Shown one piece after another: positions 45,842-59,635 of a DNA stretch of 64,000 bases. Position numbers and translations under genes: made by a program. Below the pieces are notes generated by a model. It saw only the letters and a list, made by a program, of their open reading frames with translations. It was not told the origin of the DNA and did not search any database. This stretch comes from Planctomycetota bacterium (GTDB lineage: Bacteria; Planctomycetota; B15-G4; SIAN01), in contig JANNXA010000051.1 of the NCBI GenBank assembly GCA_031409275.1, forward strand, positions 356,809 through 420,808, read 5' to 3'. The stretch's first letter is position 1, and the number at the start of each line of letters is the position of its first letter.

Positions 45842-46582
45842 TCACGCGATCGAACGCCCGCCATCGACCGCGATCACCGCGCCGGTGATGAACTCGGGTC
45901 CGTTGGCGAGGAACGCGACCGTGCGCGCCACGTCGTCGGGAGTGCCGACGCGCTTCAGCAACGTCGCGGCGATGGCACGTTCACGCTGCGTCGAATCGAA
46001 CTCCTCGGGCAGCAGCACCGGTCCGGGAGCGACCGCATTCACCCGCACCCGCGGCGCCAGCGCCCGCGCCAATCCATGCGTCAGCGACAAGAGGCCCGCC
46101 TTGGCGGCGCTGTAGGGCAGGTAGGCCGGGTAGGGACGCGTCGCCGCGGCATCGAGGACGTTCACGATCTGCCCTCGTCCCGACGCCGCCAGCAGCGGAG
46201 CCGCGAACTGCGCGCAGAAGAAGGGGGCCTTCAGATTCGACGCCAGCAGCTCGTCCCACTCCTCCTCGCTGACCGAGGCGAACGGCGTGGCGTAGAACGA
46301 GGAGGCGTTGTTCACCAGCAGGTCCAGGCGTCCGACCAGCTCGGCAACGACCCCGAAAAGCCCCTCGATCTCGGCGACCGCCGAGAGGTCGGCACGCACC
46401 AGCCAGCTGCGCCCCCCGAGGGCCTCGACTTCGCGCGCGGTCTCCTCCGCCTCCGCTCGCGAGCGGCGCCAATGGACGACGACGTCGAAACCGCCGCGAG
46501 CCAGATCGAGGGCGATGGCGCGCCCGACCCGCCTTGCGGCGCCGGTGACCAGCGCGATTCGCCGCTCGCCGGCGGCCGGCAC
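45842..46582 (-). CDS. SDR oxidoreductase, pteridine reductase (PTR1/FolM)-like
   Basis: TGAARRVG, LVNNASSF, YSAAK and RVNAVAPG. Start uncertain (GTG 46582, or upstream). Confidence 0.85.
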   Translation of the reverse strand: MPAAGERRIALVTGAARRVGRAIALDLARGGFDVVVHWRRSRAEAEETAREVEALGGRSWLVRADLSAVAEIEGLFGVVAELVGRLDLLVNNASSFYATPFASVSEEEWDELLASNLKAPFFCAQFAAPLLAASGRGQIVNVLDAAATRPYPAYLPYSAAKAGLLSLTHGLARALAPRVRVNAVAPGPVLLPEEFDSTQRERAIAATLLKRVGTPDDVARTVAFLANGPEFITGAVIAVDGGRSIA

Positions 46583-46652
46583 GGCCGCGACTTCCGACTT
46601 CCTTCGGGTCGCTGGCTTGATCGCCCTGCCTCGCTTGCTCAACTCACCCTCC

Positions 46653-46958
46653 ATGCCATGGAACAAGGTCACCACCGTCCGCGACATTCCTCAAGGTAGC
46701 CGCAAGCACGTCACCCTTGCCGGCCACGAGTACATGCTCCTCCATACGAAGGAGGGGATCTGGTGCATCGACCATCGCTGCCCGCATGCCGACGGCGCGG
46801 TGGGCGACGGGATGATCCTCGGCCAGAACATCACCTGCCCGCTGCACAAGTGGCGCTTCGACCTCTGCGACGGCTCGCACGCCCACAAGGGAACGAAGAA
46901 CCTCGGCGTCTACGCGGTGAAGGTCGAGGGCGAGGACGTGCTGATCGAGACGGGCTGA
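46653..46958 (+). CDS. Rieske [2Fe-2S] ferredoxin
   Basis: CPHADG and CPLHKWRFDL motifs. ATG 46653 (MPWNKV). Confidence 0.9.
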   Translation: MPWNKVTTVRDIPQGSRKHVTLAGHEYMLLHTKEGIWCIDHRCPHADGAVGDGMILGQNITCPLHKWRFDLCDGSHAHKGTKNLGVYAVKVEGEDVLIETG

Positions 46959-46976
46959 GCGGGAGCCGGCCGTTCC

Positions 46977-47378
46977 TCAGAACGGCAGCTCCTCGTCGGG
47001 ATCGAGCGGTGGCGACTCGCGACCGGCGGCAGAGTCGCCCGCGGCCGGCTCCTCCTTCTTGCGGCGTTTCCGTTTGCGCGGTGCGGCGTCTTCTCCCGCT
47101 TCGTCGGCGCCGCCTTCCGCCGCTTCGGCCGCGGCGTCATCGTCATCGAGGTCCTTCAGCACTTCGACGACGCGCGCCTCGGTCGCCTTCAATTTGGCGC
47201 GGCACACCTTGAGCAGCGCGACGGCCCGCTCCACTTTCAGGGCAAGCTCGTCGACGTCGACCTCGTCGCGATCGATCGAGGCGAGCAACTGCTCGATCTC
47301 CTCGACGGCCGCGGCGTAACGCACCGCATCGGGCTCGTCGCCCGCCGCATCCTTCGCATCGCGTCCCTGTCCCATCAC
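46977..47378 (-). CDS. xseB: Exodeoxyribonuclease VII small subunit
   Basis: YAAAVEEIEQLL..IDRDEVDVDELALKVERAVALLKVCRAKL. Overlaps the xseA stop. Confidence 0.88.
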   Translation of the reverse strand: MMGQGRDAKDAAGDEPDAVRYAAAVEEIEQLLASIDRDEVDVDELALKVERAVALLKVCRAKLKATEARVVEVLKDLDDDDAAAEAAEGGADEAGEDAAPRKRKRRKKEEPAAGDSAAGRESPPLDPDEELPF

Positions 47379-49150
47379 GATCGCTCCTCGCGGCGCGCAC
47401 CCGCGCCATCGGTCGTTTCGCCCGCCGTGCTCTTCACCACCGTCGCGGCCACCTGCCCACGCGCCAGCTGCGCGTGCAGCATCGCGCCGGGAGCGAGCTG
47501 CGCCGCCTCGCGAATCGTCTGCCCCAACGCATCGCGCACGATCGCAAAGCCGCGCCGCAAGGTGGCCTGCGGATGGAGCGACGCCGCGCGCAGCTCCAGA
47601 TCGGCAAGTCGAGCGGAGCGGCGCTGCAAGGTGGCGCGCAGCCGCGCCGGCTCGAAGCGCTCGATCAGCTTGGTCAACAGGGACGCCCGCAGCCGACCTT
47701 GAGCGCGCGTGAGCTCGCCCAGCCGGACGCGCGCATCGGCCAACGCGGTCCGCGCGCTGCGCACTCCCGACTGCAGCGCCGGCGCCAGCCGCGCACGCGC
47801 CGCGGCCAGCCGCTCGCGCGCACCACGACCGGCGGCATGCGCCCCGGCGGCGACGGCGGCGGCGACTCGGCGCAACCGCTCGCGCTCAGCGGGCAGCACA
47901 CGGCCGAGCGCCTCGCGCAACGCCGCGCCGCCTTGCGCCAGGAGCTGCTCGTAGGCGGCGACCCGCGCCACGATCGCGGCGGCGGCGGCGGTCGGCGTCT
48001 TCTCGCTGTGCGCGATCAGGTCGACCACCGAGACGTCGCGTTGATGGCCGATGCCGGAGATCACCTTGAGCGGCGACGTCGCCACGGCGAGCGCTACCTG
48101 CAAGGCATCGAACCCCATCAAGTCGGTCTTCGCGCCGCCGCCGCGGACGATCGCGACGACGTCGAACGCGTCGAGATGCGTGTCGAACCAGGCCAATGCC
48201 GCTGCCAGTCCGCGTTCCAGCCCGGCGCCCTGCACGCGCGTGTCGATGGCGGTGATGACGAAGGCGTAGCCGCTGCGCGAGAGTTCGTTGACGAAGTCGT
48301 TGTAGGCATCCGAGCCGGCGCTGGTGATCAGGCCGACGCGCAGCGGCACCAGCGGCCACGGCAGCGCACGATTGCGCTCGCGCAGGCCGCGGCGATCGAG
48401 CTCGGCCAGCACCTTGGCGCGATCCTGCGCCAGCTTCCCGAGCGTGTGGATCGGATCGACGTCCTCGACGACGAGCTGGTAGCTCCCCTTCGGGGCGTAG
48501 AGCTCGACGCGCACGGCGAGACGCACTTCGAGGCCATCCTTCAGCTCGAACGGTGCATCGGCGGCGGCCAGCTTCTTCTCGATCTCGCGGCGCGCGTTGG
48601 CGAAGAGGACGGCGGCGACGGTGGCACGCACCATGCCCCCTTCGCCATCCGTCGCTTTCTCGATCAGCTCGAACCAGACGTGCGGCCGGTGGCGGCTGCG
48701 CTCGAAGCCGGCGATCTCGCCGACCACCCACAGTCGCTGCGGGAACGCGGCGAGCAGCACCTGCTGCACGCGACTGTTGAGCGCGGAGACGGTCCACGAT
48801 TCGGGCGGCGCGATCGCGGCGGCGGCGGCCGCGGTCGCGGGTGGCGCGTCGGCGAAGAGCGCAGCCACCGCAGCGCGCGGCGCCGCCGGCGCCACGATCC
48901 CCTCGGCGAGCGTCTGCGTCCCGCCACGCGCCGCGTACGCCTCGCGCGCCGCCGCGGCCACTGCGAAGCCGTGCGGCACCAGCAGATCGACCACCTCGAC
49001 CACGCTCTCGACGGGCGCGCTCCAGCAGCGGTTCAGCTTGTCGAAGCTGCGGCGCGACAGCCCGCGCACCACATCGACGAGCGTCGGGTGGTACGGAAAG
49101 CGGATGACGACCTTCGCGTCACCTTCGAGCTCGATCGAACGTCCCGTCAC
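47375..49150 (-). CDS. xseA: Exodeoxyribonuclease VII large subunit with extra N-terminal (HARP-like) domain
   Basis: WTVSALN, WVVGEI, GLITSAGSDAYNDF, VQG, IVRGGG, SGIGH, KTPTAAA and LRRGFAIV. GTG 49150. Confidence 0.9.
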   Translation of the reverse strand: MTGRSIELEGDAKVVIRFPYHPTLVDVVRGLSRRSFDKLNRCWSAPVESVVEVVDLLVPHGFAVAAAAREAYAARGGTQTLAEGIVAPAAPRAAVAALFADAPPATAAAAAAIAPPESWTVSALNSRVQQVLLAAFPQRLWVVGEIAGFERSRHRPHVWFELIEKATDGEGGMVRATVAAVLFANARREIEKKLAAADAPFELKDGLEVRLAVRVELYAPKGSYQLVVEDVDPIHTLGKLAQDRAKVLAELDRRGLRERNRALPWPLVPLRVGLITSAGSDAYNDFVNELSRSGYAFVITAIDTRVQGAGLERGLAAALAWFDTHLDAFDVVAIVRGGGAKTDLMGFDALQVALAVATSPLKVISGIGHQRDVSVVDLIAHSEKTPTAAAAAIVARVAAYEQLLAQGGAALREALGRVLPAERERLRRVAAAVAAGAHAAGRGARERLAAARARLAPALQSGVRSARTALADARVRLGELTRAQGRLRASLLTKLIERFEPARLRATLQRRSARLADLELRAASLHPQATLRRGFAIVRDALGQTIREAAQLAPGAMLHAQLARGQVAATVVKSTAGETTDGAGARREERS

Positions 49151-49755
49151 TTCGGCTCCTCGCGTCTCGGCGCCGCGGGTGCGGCAGGCTTCGCAGGATA
49201 GAAGTCCTCTGGATCGGTCCCCAGCGCGTCGGCGACGCGATTGATGTAGTTGAAGTAGGCGATCACCTGCACCGCGTCGTGGATCGCGCGATCGGAGAGG
49301 CCCGCCGCCCGCAGCGCTTCGACGTCGTCGCGGCCGCACGCGGCCGGTTCGCGCGTGAGTTTCTCGGCGTACCCGCACAGCGCCTGATCGAGCGGCGCGA
49401 GGCCGGCCCCGCGCCAGTCGACCTTCGCCGCCGCCACCAGCGCGTCGGCCGCGGCTGCCCCCACCGTCTTCTCCGCCTCCGACCGGAGGTCGTGCGAGTG
49501 TGCCTCGGTTCAGTAGTGGCAGCCGTTCGTGCGCGACACGACCACGGCCAGCAGCTCGCGTTGCACGCGCGAGAGCGGCGAGGCGCCATGCATCGCGACG
49601 CCGTAGTGGCGCATCGAGGCATCGAGGAGCGGCGGATTGGGGCTCATCGTCTTGACGATGTTCCAGACGCGGCCGGCGCGGCCGATGGCGGCGTCGTACT
49701 GCGCCTTCAGCGACCCCGTCGCCTCATGCACTTCCACCAGGCGGATGTGGGCCAT
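49147..49755 (-). CDS. AhpD/carboxymuconolactone decarboxylase-family peroxidase-related selenoprotein (Sec at codon 82, TGA 49512-49510)
   Basis: MAHIRLV...RELLAVVVSRTNGCHY-TGA-TEAHSHDLR...YAEKLT..P...LRAAGLSDRAIHDAVQVIAYFNYINRVADALG is one continuous frame with a CxxU motif and a downstream hairpin. Confidence 0.88.
49476..49489 (-). promoter_or_regulatory. Putative bacterial SECIS hairpin
   Basis: Minus strand CCTCC-GGTC-GGAGG. The loop starts with G, about 25 nt after the TGA. Confidence 0.65.
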
Positions 49756-49797
49756 CGTTGCGCTCCCCTCTTCGCCGACCCCGCTACCATCGCGGCC

Positions 49798-51243
49798 ATG
49801 AACGAGCGGCGACGCTACTCGGTGATCCGGGACCCCGTCCACGGCGACCTCTACCTCACCGACGAGGAGATGGCGCTGCTCGACACCGCGGCGATGCAGC
49901 GGCTGCGCGGCGTGCGGCAGCTCGGCACCGCCTACCTCGTCTACCCCGGCGCGCAGCACACCCGTTTCGAGCACTCGCTCGGCACGCTCCACGTCGCCAG
50001 CCGGCTCATCGCCGCGATCAACCGCAACCGCGAGCTGCGGCCGGAGGGACTGCTCGGCATCGCGGCCGACGAGGAGCGCATCGTGCGCGCCGCCGCGCTG
50101 CTGCACGACGTCACCCACATCCCGTCCGGCCACAACATCGAGGACGTGCGCGGCATCCTCGATCGCCACGACTCGGCGCCGCGCTACCTCGCGCTCCTCG
50201 GCGAAGGGAGCGAGCTCGGGACGCTGCTGTCGCGCATGGGGATCCGGCGCGAGGTGCTGGCCGTGCTGCTGCCGGAAGGGACGCCCGGCTGGCCCGAAGT
50301 CCCGGCTTGCTGGCGTGAACTGCTCTCCGACACGATCTGCGCCGACCTGCTCGACTACCTGAAGCGCGACGCCTACTTCACCGGGCTCAACCTCGCCTAC
50401 GACGAGCGCGTGCTCTCCTACTTCATGGTCGATCGCGCCAGCGGCCATCTCTTCGTCGACGTCGAGAAGCGCGGCCTCTTGCGCGAGGACATCCTCTCGG
50501 AGCTGCTGCGCGTCCTCGAAGCGCGCTACTTCTTCAGCGAGCGCGTCTACTACCACCACGCGAAAGTCGCGGCCGGCGCCATGGTGGCGCAGGTGGTCGA
50601 GACCGCGCTGCTGCACGGCGGCCTGCAGAAAGAGCAGCTCTTCACGCTGACCGACGCCGAGCTCCTGCCGCTGCTCGAGCGCCATGTCGCCGCCCCGACG
50701 CCGACGGGCCGCTCGGAGAATTCCGGCGGCGAGCTCTTCGCCGCGGTGCGCAGCGACGTCGCCGACGAACTCGCGCGCGCACGCGAACTGGCGACGCGGC
50801 TGCGTTCGCGCCGCCTGCTGAAGCGCGCCTGCGTCTATCCGCTCTACGCCAACCGCGGCGTGCAGCAGGAGCTGCTCGATCGTTTCTTCGCGCCGGGCCG
50901 CCATGGCGAACGGCAATCCTTCGAGCGCGACGTGCGCGAGCAGCTTCGTCGCGCCGGCCACGAGCCGGTCTTGATCCAGCTCTATTGCCCGTCGCGCAAG
51001 ATGCAGCTGAAGGAAGCCGCGACCCACGTGCGCTACCCGGGCGCCGCCGCCATCGCGCCGCTGTCGACGTTCGCCGACAAGCTGCCGCGACTCGCCGACC
51101 TCGAACGCTCCTATCGCGACCTCTGGAAGCTCTACCTCTTCGCCGGCAGCGACGACCCGCGCGTCCTCGCCGAGATCGGCCGCATCGCCGCGCGCCTGCT
51201 GCCCGGCGCCGTCAACGTCTACCAGCCGACTGCGGAGCGCTGA
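49798..51243 (+). CDS. HD-domain phosphohydrolase, SAMHD1/dNTP triphosphohydrolase-like
   Basis: IRDPVHG, QRLRGVRQLG..YLVYPGAQHTRFEHSLG, LLHD, ADLLDYLKRD and ERVYYHH. Confidence 0.88.
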   Translation: MNERRRYSVIRDPVHGDLYLTDEEMALLDTAAMQRLRGVRQLGTAYLVYPGAQHTRFEHSLGTLHVASRLIAAINRNRELRPEGLLGIAADEERIVRAAALLHDVTHIPSGHNIEDVRGILDRHDSAPRYLALLGEGSELGTLLSRMGIRREVLAVLLPEGTPGWPEVPACWRELLSDTICADLLDYLKRDAYFTGLNLAYDERVLSYFMVDRASGHLFVDVEKRGLLREDILSELLRVLEARYFFSERVYYHHAKVAAGAMVAQVVETALLHGGLQKEQLFTLTDAELLPLLERHVAAPTPTGRSENSGGELFAAVRSDVADELARARELATRLRSRRLLKRACVYPLYANRGVQQELLDRFFAPGRHGERQSFERDVREQLRRAGHEPVLIQLYCPSRKMQLKEAATHVRYPGAAAIAPLSTFADKLPRLADLERSYRDLWKLYLFAGSDDPRVLAEIGRIAARLLPGAVNVYQPTAER

Positions 51244-54671: not shown

Positions 54672-56975
54672 TCAGCTACCGCTCGCGGACTTCCCAGCCG
54701 CTTCCGGCTCACAGCAATCGTCGGCGGCGGGGAACACGTAGCACTTCAGCTCCGACGGCTCGAGCGCCGTCGCGCCCTCGACCGCGAGCCACGCGCGATC
54801 CAGCGCGACTCCGGCGAAGCGCGACACCGTCCCCGAACCCGGCCAGCGCACTTCGACGGCGGTGATCGCCGTCGCATCGCCAAGCCCAAGCTCGAGCTGC
54901 AACGACGAGCTGCCGAAGCTGCCGCCGGTGCCGACCACCTGATGGATCGAGCGCGCGCCACGCGGCGTGGCAACCTCGACGCGCACGCGCGCGCCCTGCG
55001 CCGCGCGATTCGCCTGCACACCGCGGAAGCGCAGCGTCACCCAGTGGTTGCCGTGGCCCGGGTTGGCGAAGACGACGGTCGGGTAGTAGTCGCCAGTCAG
55101 CGCGCCGCCCGCTTCGAGGTAGACGTCCTGGTCACCGTCACCGTCGAGGTCGGCCCAGGCGACGCCGTGCCCCTTCTGGATGTGACCGAAGCCGCCGGCC
55201 GTCGTGACATCCTGGAAGGTGCCGTCGCCGGCGTTGCGGAACATGCGATTGGGCAGCAGCGCGCGCAGGCTCGGCGCGCCGTTGCCGAGGTAGAAGTCGG
55301 TGAAGCCGTCGTTGTCGAGGTCGCCGAAGTTGCTGCCCATGGTCAGCACGGCGCGATCGACGCCGGCCGCCTTGGCCACGTCGTTGAACTTGCCGCCCCC
55401 CTCGTTGTGGTAGAGGCGCGGCACCGAGGCGAGCTCCTTGCCGAACAGCAGGTTGCCCACCTCGCTGATCGAGTCGCTGGTGAACAGTCCGTTGCCGGCG
55501 ACGAAGAGGTCGAGGCGGCCGTCGTTGTCGTAGTCGAAGAACCAGGTCGGGAAGCTCATCGCCGGCTCGGCGACGCCAGCCGACGCCGTGACGTCGACGA
55601 AGTGGATTCCCTCGTCGCCGCCCGCCACGTTCTTCAGCAGGACGTTCGCCTCCTCGCGCCGCGAGTAGTAGAGGTCGACGCGCCCGTCGTCGTCGAAGTC
55701 GCCGGCCGCGACCCCCTTCACCCAGCCGACGATGTCGGCGCCCACTTCCTCGGACACCTCGCGGAAGGTGCCGTCACGATTGCTGAGCCAGAGCTCGCTC
55801 GGCTGCGCCTTCGCGTCGGGCTGCGTCTCGTTGCCGATGATCAAGTCGAGCCAGCCGTCGTTGTTCAGGTCGGCCCACTGCGCCGCCTGCGTCGCGTGGT
55901 AGGCGAGGACGCCCGCCTCCTCGGTCACGTCCTCGAAGGTGCCGTCGCCGCGGTTGCGCAGCAGCGAGTTGGGCATCCGGCCGATCTCGCCCATCCAGGC
56001 GCCGCGCAGCACCAGGACGTCGGCGTCGCCGTCGTTGTCGTAGTCGGCGTGGCAGCAATTGAGGCCACCGGTCAGCCCCTCGAGCCCCGCCTCGCGAGTG
56101 CGTTCGACGAAGCGACCGACGCCTTTGTCGTCGACGCGCGCGACGAAGAAGCGCGCCGGGTCCTCGAGCCCGATCGCGGTGCAGAAAACGTCGATCAGGC
56201 CGTCGCCGTCGAAGTCCTCGAGGCAGACGCCGCCCGAACGGGTCGCGATGCCGAGCCCGAGCGCCGGCGCGACGTCGGGGAAGCGGCCGCAGTCGTAGCT
56301 CGACGCCAGCGCCTCGGGCTCCAGGCGCCACCGCTCGGGCACGCCGTCGGGCCAGCGGCCGAGCGTCATCGCCGCGAGGTTCAGCAGCCAGCGCGACTCG
56401 ATGTCGTCGGGGAACTCCTCGCAAAGCTCGAGGTAGAGCTTGAACGCCTGCTCCGACCCCTCGCGCTCGACGTGCTGGCCGCCCGGCGCGATCGGCGCGA
56501 TGCACGACGCGCACGCGTGGTGGCCGATGCAGTTCTCGAGCTCGCCGAGCCGCAGCCAGGTGATGGCGCGCCAGCGCTTCAGGTCGGCCTGGAACTCGGC
56601 GTCCGGCTTGCCGAACCGCTCGAGCCACGTCTTCTCGGCGAGGTCGAACTCGGCCAGCGCGCCGGCGGCGTCGTTCATCTGCACCAGCTCGCGGGCGAGC
56701 AGGCGGTGCTTGCGCGGCTCGTCGTCGCTGCCGCGCGAGTCTTCGAGCTGCTCGAGCCGCCACTGGAGGCGCTCGGCGTTGAGCATGTAGCCCTCGGGCC
56801 GCTTGTAGTCGATCTCCTCGCGGATCTCGGCCAGTTCGTCGACCATCCACAACGTGCCGGAGCTGCGCGGGTCGCCTGGCTGCGGCACGGGGCGTCGTGA
56901 ATCGAGCCACCAGGCCACTCCGGCGCCGACGCCGACCAGCGGCAGCAGGATGAGGACGAGATCACGCGACTTCAT
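54672..56975 (-). CDS. CRTAC1 / ASPIC-UnbV family protein with N-terminal TPR-like region
   Basis: N-terminal TM, repeated DYDNDG/DFDGDG motifs, GHIQKGHGVA and NRAAQGARV...LGLG...VRWPGSG. Confidence 0.9.
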   Translation of the reverse strand: MKSRDLVLILLPLVGVGAGVAWWLDSRRPVPQPGDPRSSGTLWMVDELAEIREEIDYKRPEGYMLNAERLQWRLEQLEDSRGSDDEPRKHRLLARELVQMNDAAGALAEFDLAEKTWLERFGKPDAEFQADLKRWRAITWLRLGELENCIGHHACASCIAPIAPGGQHVEREGSEQAFKLYLELCEEFPDDIESRWLLNLAAMTLGRWPDGVPERWRLEPEALASSYDCGRFPDVAPALGLGIATRSGGVCLEDFDGDGLIDVFCTAIGLEDPARFFVARVDDKGVGRFVERTREAGLEGLTGGLNCCHADYDNDGDADVLVLRGAWMGEIGRMPNSLLRNRGDGTFEDVTEEAGVLAYHATQAAQWADLNNDGWLDLIIGNETQPDAKAQPSELWLSNRDGTFREVSEEVGADIVGWVKGVAAGDFDDDGRVDLYYSRREEANVLLKNVAGGDEGIHFVDVTASAGVAEPAMSFPTWFFDYDNDGRLDLFVAGNGLFTSDSISEVGNLLFGKELASVPRLYHNEGGGKFNDVAKAAGVDRAVLTMGSNFGDLDNDGFTDFYLGNGAPSLRALLPNRMFRNAGDGTFQDVTTAGGFGHIQKGHGVAWADLDGDGDQDVYLEAGGALTGDYYPTVVFANPGHGNHWVTLRFRGVQANRAAQGARVRVEVATPRGARSIHQVVGTGGSFGSSSLQLELGLGDATAITAVEVRWPGSGTVSRFAGVALDRAWLAVEGATALEPSELKCYVFPAADDCCEPEAAGKSASGS

Positions 56976-57026: not shown

Positions 57027-59294
57027 TTACGGCGACTTTCCGTCGGGCGCGGCCGGCGGGCAGCAATCCGGCGCTTCGCCGAAGCGGAACGGGCGCAGCG
57101 CCACCGGCTGCAGCGTCGCCTCCCCTTCGATCGCAAGCCAGGCGCGCTCCATCGGCACGTCCGTGAAACGGGAGAGCGTGCCGGAGCCCGGCCAGCGCAC
57201 GTCGATCGAGCGGATCGCGGTCGCGTCGCCGAGTCCAAGTTCCATCCGCAGCGAGCTCGAACCGAAGCTGCCACCGGTGCTCACCACCTGATGCAGGGTG
57301 CGTGGACCACCTGGCGTGTCGAGCACGACGGTCACGCGCGCGCCGATGGCGCTGCGATTCGCCTTCACCCCGCGCAGGTGGAGCGCGACCCAACGGTGGG
57401 CATGGCCGGGATTCTCGTAGAGGACGTTGGGGTAGACGTCGCCGTCGAAGAAACCGCCGACCTCGAGGAAAAGGTCGACGTCGCCATCGTCGTCGACGTC
57501 GCCCATCGCGACCGCGTGCCCCTTCTGCAGATGGCCGGTGCCGGAGGCGAAGGTGACATCGACGAAGCGCTTGCCGCCGTCGTTCTTGTAGAGGCGATTG
57601 GGCAGGAGCGCGTCGAGCGGCGGCGAGCCGTTGCCGAGGTAGATCTCATCGAACCCGTCACCATCGAGGTCCGCGAAGTTGGAGCCCATCGACAGGATCG
57701 CGCGGTCGAGGCCAGCCGCGGCGCCGAGCTCGACGAAGCGGCCGCCGTCGTTGTGGAAGAGTCGGGTCGGCGCGAGCGGCATCAGGCCACTCATGACCTT
57801 TCCGATGTCGAACGCGTGCTCGTTGGCCAGCGGCGCATTGGTCGAGACGAAGAGGTCGTCGCGCCCATCCTGGTCGTAGTCGAAGAACCAGCTCGGGAAG
57901 CTCATCTTCGTGCCTTCGTCGATCCCCGCAATCGCCGTCACATCCTCGAAGCGGAAGCCGGGCGCGTGGTCGGAGGCGACGTTGCGAAGCAGTTGGTTCC
58001 GGCCGTTGCGCTTCGAGACGTACAGGTCGACGCGATCGTCACCATCGAAGTCGCCGACGGCCAGCGACTTGTTCCAGCCGATCGAGGTGGCGCCGACCTG
58101 TTCGGCCACCTCCTCGAACGTGCCGTCACGGCGGTTCCAGTAGAGCTCGCAAGGATGCGGATGTTGGGGATCCTGCGTCTCGTTGCCGATCGCGAGGTCG
58201 AGCCAGCCGTCGCCGTCGAAGTCGCGCCACTGTCCCGTCTGCGTCGGATGGAACGAGAGCAGTCCCGCCGCCTCGGTCACGTCCTCGAAGTGGCCTTCTC
58301 CCGTGTTGCGGAGCAGCGAGTTGGGCAGGCGCCCTTGCTCGCCCCACCACGCGCCGCGCAGGACCAGCACGTCGGCGTCGCCATCGTTGTCGTAGTCGGC
58401 GTGCACGAGGTTGAGCCCGCCCATCAGCCCGGCAAGCCCCGCCTCCTTCGCGCGATCGACGAAGGTGCCATCGCCCTGGTTCACGTAGAAGTGGAGCGGC
58501 TCGTGCAGGCCGATCGAGCTGGTGAACAGGTCGAGACGTCCATCGCCATCGAAATCCTCCATGCAGGCGCCGCCCGACAAGGATGAGTCGGCGATGCCGG
58601 CCTGCGGCGCGACGTTGCGCATCCGCGGGAAGGGGACTTCCGACTCGAAGGTCGAAGGCGGCAGCCGGAAGCGCTCCGGCACCGCGTCGGGCCAGTGACC
58701 GAGCGTCATCGCCGCGAGGTTCAGCAGCCAGCGCGCATCGAGGTCGTCGGGACGCCGCTCGAGGAGTTGCCCGTACAGCACGAGCGCCTGCTCGGAGCCA
58801 CGTCGCTCGACATGCTGAGCCGCCGCGGCGATCGGCAAGACGCACGACTGGCAGCCGTGGTGCTCGAGGCAGTTCTCGATCTCGCCGAGGCGCAGCCACG
58901 AGATCGCCTTCCAGCGCAGGAAATCGACGGCGACCGCCTCCGCGTCCGCCGCGTTCGCGCCGAAGTCACGCGCGTAGGCGCGCTCGGAGGCCTCGAACTC
59001 GGGCAGCGCCTCGAGCGGCGAGCCGCGGTGAAGCAGTTCCTTCGCCAGCTGGAGCCGCTGCTTCCACTCGTTGCTCTTGCCCTCGGCGGCTTCCACCTGC
59101 TTGCGCCGCCATGGGACCCGCAGCTCATTCCAGCAGTAGGCGTCCTTCCCCTTCAGATCTCGATCCTCGGCCCAATCGGCGAGGCGCTCGATCATCACGA
59201 GCGTGCTCAAGCTGCGCGGATCGCCCGGCTCGCGGACGGGGCCGCGCGGCCACGCGATCCAAGCGGCGAGCGCCGCGAGCGCCGCCGCGGCCAT
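57027..59294 (-). CDS. CRTAC1 / ASPIC-UnbV family protein, tandem paralog
   Basis: Same architecture as 54672-56975. Start uncertain (ATG 59294 or TTG 59387). Confidence 0.88.
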   Translation of the reverse strand: MAAAALAALAAWIAWPRGPVREPGDPRSLSTLVMIERLADWAEDRDLKGKDAYCWNELRVPWRRKQVEAAEGKSNEWKQRLQLAKELLHRGSPLEALPEFEASERAYARDFGANAADAEAVAVDFLRWKAISWLRLGEIENCLEHHGCQSCVLPIAAAAQHVERRGSEQALVLYGQLLERRPDDLDARWLLNLAAMTLGHWPDAVPERFRLPPSTFESEVPFPRMRNVAPQAGIADSSLSGGACMEDFDGDGRLDLFTSSIGLHEPLHFYVNQGDGTFVDRAKEAGLAGLMGGLNLVHADYDNDGDADVLVLRGAWWGEQGRLPNSLLRNTGEGHFEDVTEAAGLLSFHPTQTGQWRDFDGDGWLDLAIGNETQDPQHPHPCELYWNRRDGTFEEVAEQVGATSIGWNKSLAVGDFDGDDRVDLYVSKRNGRNQLLRNVASDHAPGFRFEDVTAIAGIDEGTKMSFPSWFFDYDQDGRDDLFVSTNAPLANEHAFDIGKVMSGLMPLAPTRLFHNDGGRFVELGAAAGLDRAILSMGSNFADLDGDGFDEIYLGNGSPPLDALLPNRLYKNDGGKRFVDVTFASGTGHLQKGHAVAMGDVDDDGDVDLFLEVGGFFDGDVYPNVLYENPGHAHRWVALHLRGVKANRSAIGARVTVVLDTPGGPRTLHQVVSTGGSFGSSSLRMELGLGDATAIRSIDVRWPGSGTLSRFTDVPMERAWLAIEGEATLQPVALRPFRFGEAPDCCPPAAPDGKSP

Positions 59295-59635
59295 CAAGAG
59301 CGGAGCGCGAGCGACTCGACCGCGATCACGAGCGCCAATCGGCGCGACGCGCGAGGTGCTGGCGTTGGAGGTCGGAAGGGAAGTCAAAGTTGCCTTGTCG
59401 CCGAGCGTGGCGCCCGGCCGAGAATCCGAAAGCGCCCGGCTGTACGCGTTCCGTTGGGACCTCTTACCTCTTCGAAGCAAAGCGACCGGACGATGAGTCC
59501 GATTTTTCGGCAGCCTCCGGGCGGCCGCGTCGACTCGACTTCCCTCTGGCAAGCCGCGCGCCGCGGCGCTTCAATGGCGGCCGCTTTGCCGGCCCCGGAC
59601 GCTCGCGCCCGAGGCCCTCACGACGCACTCGATGC

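Follow-up and report, generated by a model that had tools for sequence, protein, structure and literature searches.

A predicted AhpD-like selenoprotein in a Planctomycetota genome, with an in-frame UGA codon and a putative SECIS hairpin within its coding region

AhpD-like proteins with selenocysteine (Sec) at the second position of their redox motif (CxxU) were first described in 2005 from Sargasso Sea data, with 27 sequences (PMC1088965), and 299 sequences are reported from the GOS data (PMC2398784). BSepDB has a family page for the AhpD-like selenoprotein (PMC13326102). In Table 1 of a 2026 review, the entry "AhpD-like protein, TIGR01926, CxxU" is placed in the class "Predicted with high confidence" and not in the class "Experimentally verified" (PMC13188914). 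The region analyzed here, referred to as the window, is a 64,000-nucleotide (nt) stretch of contig JANNXA010000051.1 from a Planctomycetota bacterium (GCA_031409275.1). It contains, on the reverse strand, a gene that open reading frame (ORF) callers break at an internal TGA. We conclude that this is very probably one intact gene, in which the internal UGA is decoded as selenocysteine to yield an AhpD-like protein of 202 amino acids (aa), predicted to be a selenol-based peroxide/disulfide reductase. It is an ordinary member of the known family (TIGR01926, CxxU) and does not define a new one. The original prediction, made from the DNA alone, rightly referred to AhpD-like proteins as a recognized bacterial selenoprotein family (PMC1088965, PMC2398784, PMC13188914). 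It called the gene "hidden", which is true for ordinary gene callers but not otherwise, since catalogs already include this family (PMC1088965; PMC13188914, Table 1). A literature search found no paper combining selenoprotein, Planctomycetota and SECIS (selenocysteine insertion sequence).

The frame running from 49755 to 49147 on the minus strand consists of 81 codons, a TGA, 120 further codons and a terminal TGA. Translated with TGA as U, it is a single frame containing C79-H80-Y81-U82-T-E-A-H86. The ORF list divides it into an ORF ending in ...NGCHY at 49510 and a 105-aa ORF (49464-49147); that both parts share one frame had been recognized originally and agrees with the list and the translation. 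The read-through product scores 129.7 bits against TIGR01926 (cut-off 81.8) over residues 4-184, spanning the TGA. It also passes the AhpD core domain model TIGR00778 (44.7 versus a cut-off of 27.8) and is assigned to CMD by Pfam. Other families were tried and rejected: the Mycobacterium tuberculosis-type AhpD (TIGR00777; 26.5 versus 191.95), NF041238 AhpD_rel_CFYUT (69.4 versus 175), and TIGR04030 and TIGR04029, both with scores under the cut-off. Six solved structures match by sequence, the best being Deinococcus radiodurans 6K40 (E 9e-30). In the three alignments shown (6K40, 2OYO, 3C1L), the TGA at 49512-49510 falls on the second Cys of CxxC, the position originally assigned to it. CxxC is present in 21 of the 48 aligned database homologs. 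In the annotation, the locus should read as a single 202-aa selenoprotein, neither two fragments nor a pseudogene.

Conservation of the TGA was assessed in orthologs. Thirty loci from 61 related genomes (one of them, L020, being the window's own) were combined with the 80 best among 562 confirmed loci of the genome collection, and removal of 4 duplicates left 106 distinct orthologous loci, which cover Planctomycetota, Chloroflexota, Gemmatimonadota, Acidobacteriota and others. All 106 have TGA at column 82. It might be argued that TGC/TGT was misread or misassembled as TGA, or that the gene became a pseudogene through a recent nonsense mutation, given that the source is a 55-contig assembly. 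The presence of the same TGA in every distinct locus makes both explanations untenable, and their probability is negligible. Moreover, the part downstream of the TGA shows no decay, conservation being similar on both sides (0.67 for residues 1-81, 0.80 for 83-93 and 0.70 for 113-185). A metagenome scan with a Cys-type homolog as query returned 73 loci, of which 60 remained after exclusion of 3 without the column, 2 that were too short and 8 duplicates. Even with this query, TGA was found at column 82 in 54 of the 60, the others having TGC/TGT (5) or, in one distant match, GCG.

The TGA could also be a real stop, with AhpD conserved in split form as one polypeptide of 81 aa and another of 105 aa that starts at the GTG at 49464. 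In this copy the GTG is preceded by a GGAGG/GGAG-like site, and C-terminal-only products account for 69 of the 120 homologs listed in databases. Such fragments are, however, the expected output of gene callers, and their number indicates that splitting by annotators is common in databases. Only 15 of the 106 orthologs have a start codon (ATG, GTG or TTG) in the GTG column; 83 have none of these codons from the TGA to the invariant His86, and 24 have none within 34 codons. The stop at column 82 is always TGA, whereas the terminal stops of the same loci vary (TGA 66, TAG 26, TAA 14), and it sits at the position of a catalytic Cys. We consider a split AhpD very improbable.

A close clade (about 50% identity; L130-L133, P0015-P0020, P0022 and P0023) has Cys at column 82 and Thr in place of Cys79 (N-S-T-R-Y-C). 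It thus has a one-cysteine site while the pairable stem described below is still kept. This clade is possibly a recent Sec-to-Cys reversion.

A hairpin follows the UGA within the coding region. Its family consensus is GACCUC-(CGK-NNN)-GAGGUC, and the copy here is CCUCC-GGUC-GGAGG at 49489-49476. The stem starts 21 nt and the loop 26 nt after the TGA, with 25 nt separating TGA and loop, in agreement with the spacing first proposed. The bSECIS model describes a loop of 3-9 nt on a stem of 4-16 bp, located 16-37 nt from the UGA, with a minimum free energy of -7.5 or lower and a G at loop position 1 or 2 with G/U after it (PMC13188914). The hairpin here has the loop GGUC, a 5-bp upper stem, the 25-nt spacing and an energy of -10.6 kcal/mol with a bulged extension (-7.0 bare). 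In this genome, 1984 TGA codons terminate long coding-like stretches, and a loose SECIS rule accepts the sequence after 343 of them. Rfam returned no match at E up to 1 for 48800-50100. The significance of the hairpin comes from comparison across orthologs and not from the fold of the single sequence.

Three codons of the hairpin are locked. Leu90 is CTC in 106/106 orthologs, a codon with a share of 37% in the rest of these genes. Glu93 is GAG in 106/106 (66% elsewhere). At Arg91, in the loop, CGG or CGT is used in 105/105. CGC, which prevails among Arg codons elsewhere (49%), never occurs there, so that the G-G/U demanded by the consensus SECIS model is retained. At further conserved Leu, Arg and Glu positions the codons are mixed. 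Phe168 is also nearly fixed (TTC in 104/106), and one fixed codon alone is therefore not decisive. The six-pair stem is paired in 98.4% of 612 cells, versus 25-52% when it is slid. Nine stem cells are changed on both sides, a value reached by none of 500 shuffles. A C-G pair is replaced by U-A in 11/106 loci; on a quick tree this requires 7 changes, and well-supported branches force no fewer than 3 of these. In distant Cys forms, the stem is absent. The synonymous codon lock, together with this covarying pair, indicates that the hairpin is under selection at the RNA level. A codon-locked SECIS imposes the peptide D-L-R-x-E-(V/I) and would be a clean case of an RNA signal shaping a protein sequence.

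The genome (92.9% complete, 55 contigs) codes for the required machinery. Profile searches found selA (484 bits, cut-off 268), selB (334 bits, cut-off 242) and selD (338 bits, cut-off 125), and a tRNA-Sec (selC) with anticodon TCA scores 76 bits. The selD gene, too, contains an internal TGA in frame (C-A-G-U-A-A-K), with a 9-bp hairpin after it. Two of the three refuting conditions named in the original prediction, a genome without selA, selB, selC and selD and homologs lacking Cys or Sec at the TGA column, do not hold: all four genes are present, and homologs have Cys or TGA at column 82.

A reading of UGA82 as Trp, Cys or Gly, by a suppressor tRNA or because the genetic code is altered, is hardly to be expected, even though Trp stands at the column in 12 of the 48 aligned database homologs (Arg in 1 and Gly in 1). 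TGG is absent from the column in the 106 orthologous and 60 metagenome loci, and the Trp entries are thus probably gene-caller translations with TGA as W. Trp would destroy the CxxC chemistry. In the same genome, TGA terminates selA as well as the gene under study, and no intron-free tRNA other than the Rfam tRNA-Sec has the anticodon TCA. Selenocysteine read-through at UGA82 is, in our judgment, very likely.

The co-occurrence with selA was surveyed in 151 genomes of the phylum that are at least 90% complete, with matches accepted at E up to 1e-12. Matches occur in 71 of these genomes and selA in 110. By a hand count, in which the TGA position was checked in fetched loci only, TGA-bearing matches occur in 68 genomes, selA being present in 65 of them. 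Three genomes have solely stop-free matches; these encode Cys at the column, and the three genomes lack selA. Among the three TGA carriers without selA, two (G092 and G152) have selB above the cut-off. In one genome of the survey, an ortholog lies tail-to-tail beside selA (L226, G135:C15:64551-66451).

Several observations weigh against a selenocysteine-containing redox protein. The third TGA carrier without selA (G134, 90% complete) has no selA, selB, selD or tRNA-Sec above the cut-off, its tRNA match being a tRNA-Leu. TGA also occurs inside two peroxiredoxin-like matches of this genome, so that a missing contig or assembly gap is the likely reason for the exception. The AhpD-like genes of G134 are two, both of the TGA type (L223 and L224, on G134:C69 and C104). 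Related genomes are not independent, and the co-occurrence is given without a statistic. The 60 nt following the TGA fold at z = +0.34, with 129 of 200 shuffles as good, and their minimum-energy fold pairs differently from the hairpin. Three of the six stem pairs are invariant and the covariation is that of one pair, while the copy here is devoid of two of the six consensus pairs (lower stem), the upper part and an extra C-G pair remaining. In the nearest Cys clade, all four loci (L130-L133) can still form at least 5/6 pairs, so that this comparison cannot separate RNA from protein constraint. No conserved redox partner is found nearby across phyla, and no neighbor cluster occurs in more than 10 of the 106 loci, in a count that leaves out antisense frames of the selenoprotein gene itself; the 17 annotated cluster representatives are unrelated housekeeping genes. 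Finally, the Cys homolog PA0269 is a weak H2O2 peroxidase (PMC3141380).

The active site can be compared residue by residue with characterized proteins. The relay of M. tuberculosis AhpD consists of Glu118/Cys130/His132/Cys133/His137, and that of PA0269 of Glu36/Cys48/Tyr50/Cys51/His55 (PMC3141380). In the protein studied here, the pattern Glu-x11-Cys-x-(His/Tyr)-Cys/Sec-x3-His is found on a helical hairpin (Table 1), with Sec82 at the position of Cys133 in the Glu-Cys-Cys-His relay. Cys133 is said to be the attacking residue of M. tuberculosis AhpD. The codon for His86 lies 3' of the TGA, and His86 can join Cys79 in one chain only by read-through. An AlphaFold2 model, computed with Cys in place of Sec, has a mean predicted local distance difference test score (pLDDT) of 96.3. 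Its top fold match is 6K40 (template modeling (TM) score 0.80), followed at lower scores by PA0269, Streptococcus pneumoniae AhpD, Bmp8 and sestrin.

Following standard bacterial Sec biology, SelD would provide selenophosphate and SelA would convert Ser-tRNA(Sec) to Sec-tRNA(Sec). SelB would bind to the apical loop (G-G/U) of the hairpin, located about 25 nt after the UGA, and bring in Sec at UGA82. By analogy to M. tuberculosis AhpD and PA0269, Glu67, a water and His86 may form the relay next to Sec82. The target of attack by the Sec82 selenolate would then be a hydroperoxide or a disulfide in a partner, e.g. a peroxiredoxin. The intermediate would be resolved by Cys79, giving a Cys79-Sec82 selenenyl-sulfide, which a lipoyl- or thioredoxin-type donor may re-reduce.

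The selenocysteine may, on the other hand, serve a function other than peroxide defense, e.g. as a reductive dehalogenase like Bmp8. Selenium enzymes catalyze reductive deiodination. The model matches the debrominase Bmp8 (6OHJ) with a TM-score of 0.72 at 20% identity, and no peroxiredoxin or lipoyl gene recurs among the 17 annotated neighbor clusters. AhpD-like antioxidant proteins are much closer, however (6K40, 40% identity). DR1765, the protein of structure 6K40, protects against H2O2 in a CxxC-dependent manner: its loss leads to H2O2 sensitivity, and both Cys matter (PMC8945050). A literature search on Bmp8 found nothing relevant. We consider a Bmp8-like role improbable. Given read-through, there are good grounds, by analogy to characterized relatives, to expect an AhpD-type redox role, and a peroxide or disulfide reductase is the likely activity. 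The 202-aa Sec reading of the original "202-aa Sec-peroxidase" is supported, while the peroxidase part follows from the family and the active-site residues. Among the papers listed by a literature search on biochemical work with Sec-containing AhpD, none was relevant. Because the family is listed only as predicted (PMC13188914, Table 1), evidence on expression or activity of any member would be a modest but real advance.

Table 1. Features of the AhpD-like selenoprotein gene and its surroundings (positions are those of the window)
Feature	Position	Strand	Basis or remark
AhpD-like (TIGR01926) coding sequence, 202 aa	49147..49755	-	ATG to terminal TGA, one internal TGA
In-frame TGA, codon 82, putative selenocysteine (CxxU)	49510..49512	-	106/106 orthologous loci and alignment to CxxC
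Predicted SECIS core, codons D89-L90-R91-S92-E93-A94	49474..49491	-	pairing, codon lock across orthologs
Shine-Dalgarno-like GAGGGGAG	49763..49770	-	sequence only; 7 nt upstream of ATG
Glu67 (Glu118 of the M. tuberculosis AhpD relay)	49555..49557	-	106/106 orthologs; spacing per PMC3141380
Cys79 (Cys130), putative resolving residue	49519..49521	-	106/106 orthologs
Tyr81 (His132 of AhpD, Tyr50 of PA0269)	49513..49515	-	106/106 orthologs; PMC3141380
His86 (His137), 3' of the TGA	49498..49500	-	106/106 orthologs
xseA, putative GTG start	49150-47375	-	GTGA overlap (49147..49150) with the terminal stop of the selenoprotein gene
xseB	47378-46977	-	overlaps the end of xseA
HD-domain phosphohydrolase gene (PF01966, PF19276), divergent	49798-51243	+	Pfam

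The selenoprotein gene lies between xseA and a divergent HD-domain gene (Table 1). The latter is separated from the selenoprotein ATG by 42 nt, which leaves hardly any room for a promoter. A sigma-70 scan of 46500-50200 gave no promoter-like site, and one terminator-like site was found, which is at chance level. The product of xseA has an extra N-terminal segment ahead of the OB fold, with a weak HARP match (E 0.016, under the cut-off). The order HD gene/selenoprotein gene/xseA is found in 7 of 8 loci of this Planctomycetota family, with the xseA start within about 16 nt, and was not found in the remaining orthologous loci. It is tempting to speculate that the selenoprotein gene acts as a selenium gate for DNA repair in this family, although we rate this as a long shot. 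Only ribosomes inserting Sec at UGA82 would reach the coupled xseA start, and exonuclease VII (xseA, xseB) would fall when selenium is scarce. A strict dependence of xseA on read-through is argued against by its own AGGAG site.

Further selenoprotein candidates are encoded in the genome. A genome scan found 154 TGA codons that are flanked by coding signal both before and after; 34 of them, including the one in the AhpD-like gene, have a SECIS-like hairpin. Pfam was applied to 20 of these 34 and placed 10 in thioredoxin-fold, peroxiredoxin, glutaredoxin or MsrA families. NCBIfam, applied to 7 candidates, found 2 above curated (seleno)protein cut-offs, one of them additional to the Pfam list; a third scored 261 versus 300, on a shortened stretch. 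Judging from these matches, the other candidate Sec-encoding genes, with selD counted, would number at least 12. Eleven TGA read-through genes of the genome (G000) are of known redox kinds (L205, L208, L210, L211, L213, L214, L215, L217, L220, L221 and L222). They include two peroxiredoxins (TPGU), an MsrB-MsrA fusion (GUFWG), a glutaredoxin, an ArsC-like protein, a VPGUxxT thioredoxin-like protein, a Trx7/PDZ protein and other thioredoxin folds. Three additional read-through candidates have SECIS-like hairpins but gave no Pfam or NCBIfam match on the stretches tested: L203 (G000:C6:2306, minus strand; G-V-G-U-S-G), L209 (C23:25248, minus strand; E-S-C-U-G-S-G) and L216 (C43:63697, plus strand; G-C-V-U-N-N-G).

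A large FG-GAP/ASPIC-UnbV gene (L207/L230; G000:C14, TGA at 295797, minus strand) has the motif D-L-U-S-F-W-W-R around its in-frame TGA; the hairpin is strong, and its loop is GUU. The TGA lies inside 21 of its 23 matches, which come from 16 of the 151 phylum genomes. FG-GAP/ASPIC-UnbV terms were not found in the main text of the 2026 selenoprotein review or in a literature search. Within the window, 54672-56975 and 57027-59552 (both minus strand) are tandem paralogous long genes with repeated DxDxDG, FG-GAP/ASPIC-UnbV-like by eye; neither matches an NCBIfam family above the cut-off.

Among known systems, the gamma-carboxymuconolactone decarboxylases (CMD, PF02627) have the helical hairpin in common with this protein, but true CMDs are without a CxxC relay (PMC3141380). 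The NF041238 (seleno)protein likewise shares the CMD/AhpD helical hairpin and CxxU, but it is described by a 357-position model. M. tuberculosis AhpD (TIGR00777; 1KNC) has the AhpD core domain and the same relay spacing. It differs in topology (TM-score 0.46), Tyr replaces its His132 here, and no ahpC gene is adjacent. D. radiodurans DR1765 and the related TIGR01926 structures 2OYO, 3C1L, 2PFX and 2PRR share the C-x-Y-C-x-x-x-H motif, and DR1765 matches over its full length and has the same all-helical fold. This group has Cys instead of Sec at the second position, is about 40% identical and lacks the SECIS-coding segment D-L-R-x-E-V. The closest counterpart is the AhpD-like selenoprotein family itself (COG2128/TIGR01926, "AhpD-like 1", representative MCB9421940.1). 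It has the same model, CxxU, one Sec and, as here, an in-ORF SECIS that fits the published consensus; no difference was noticed, the representative not having been aligned.

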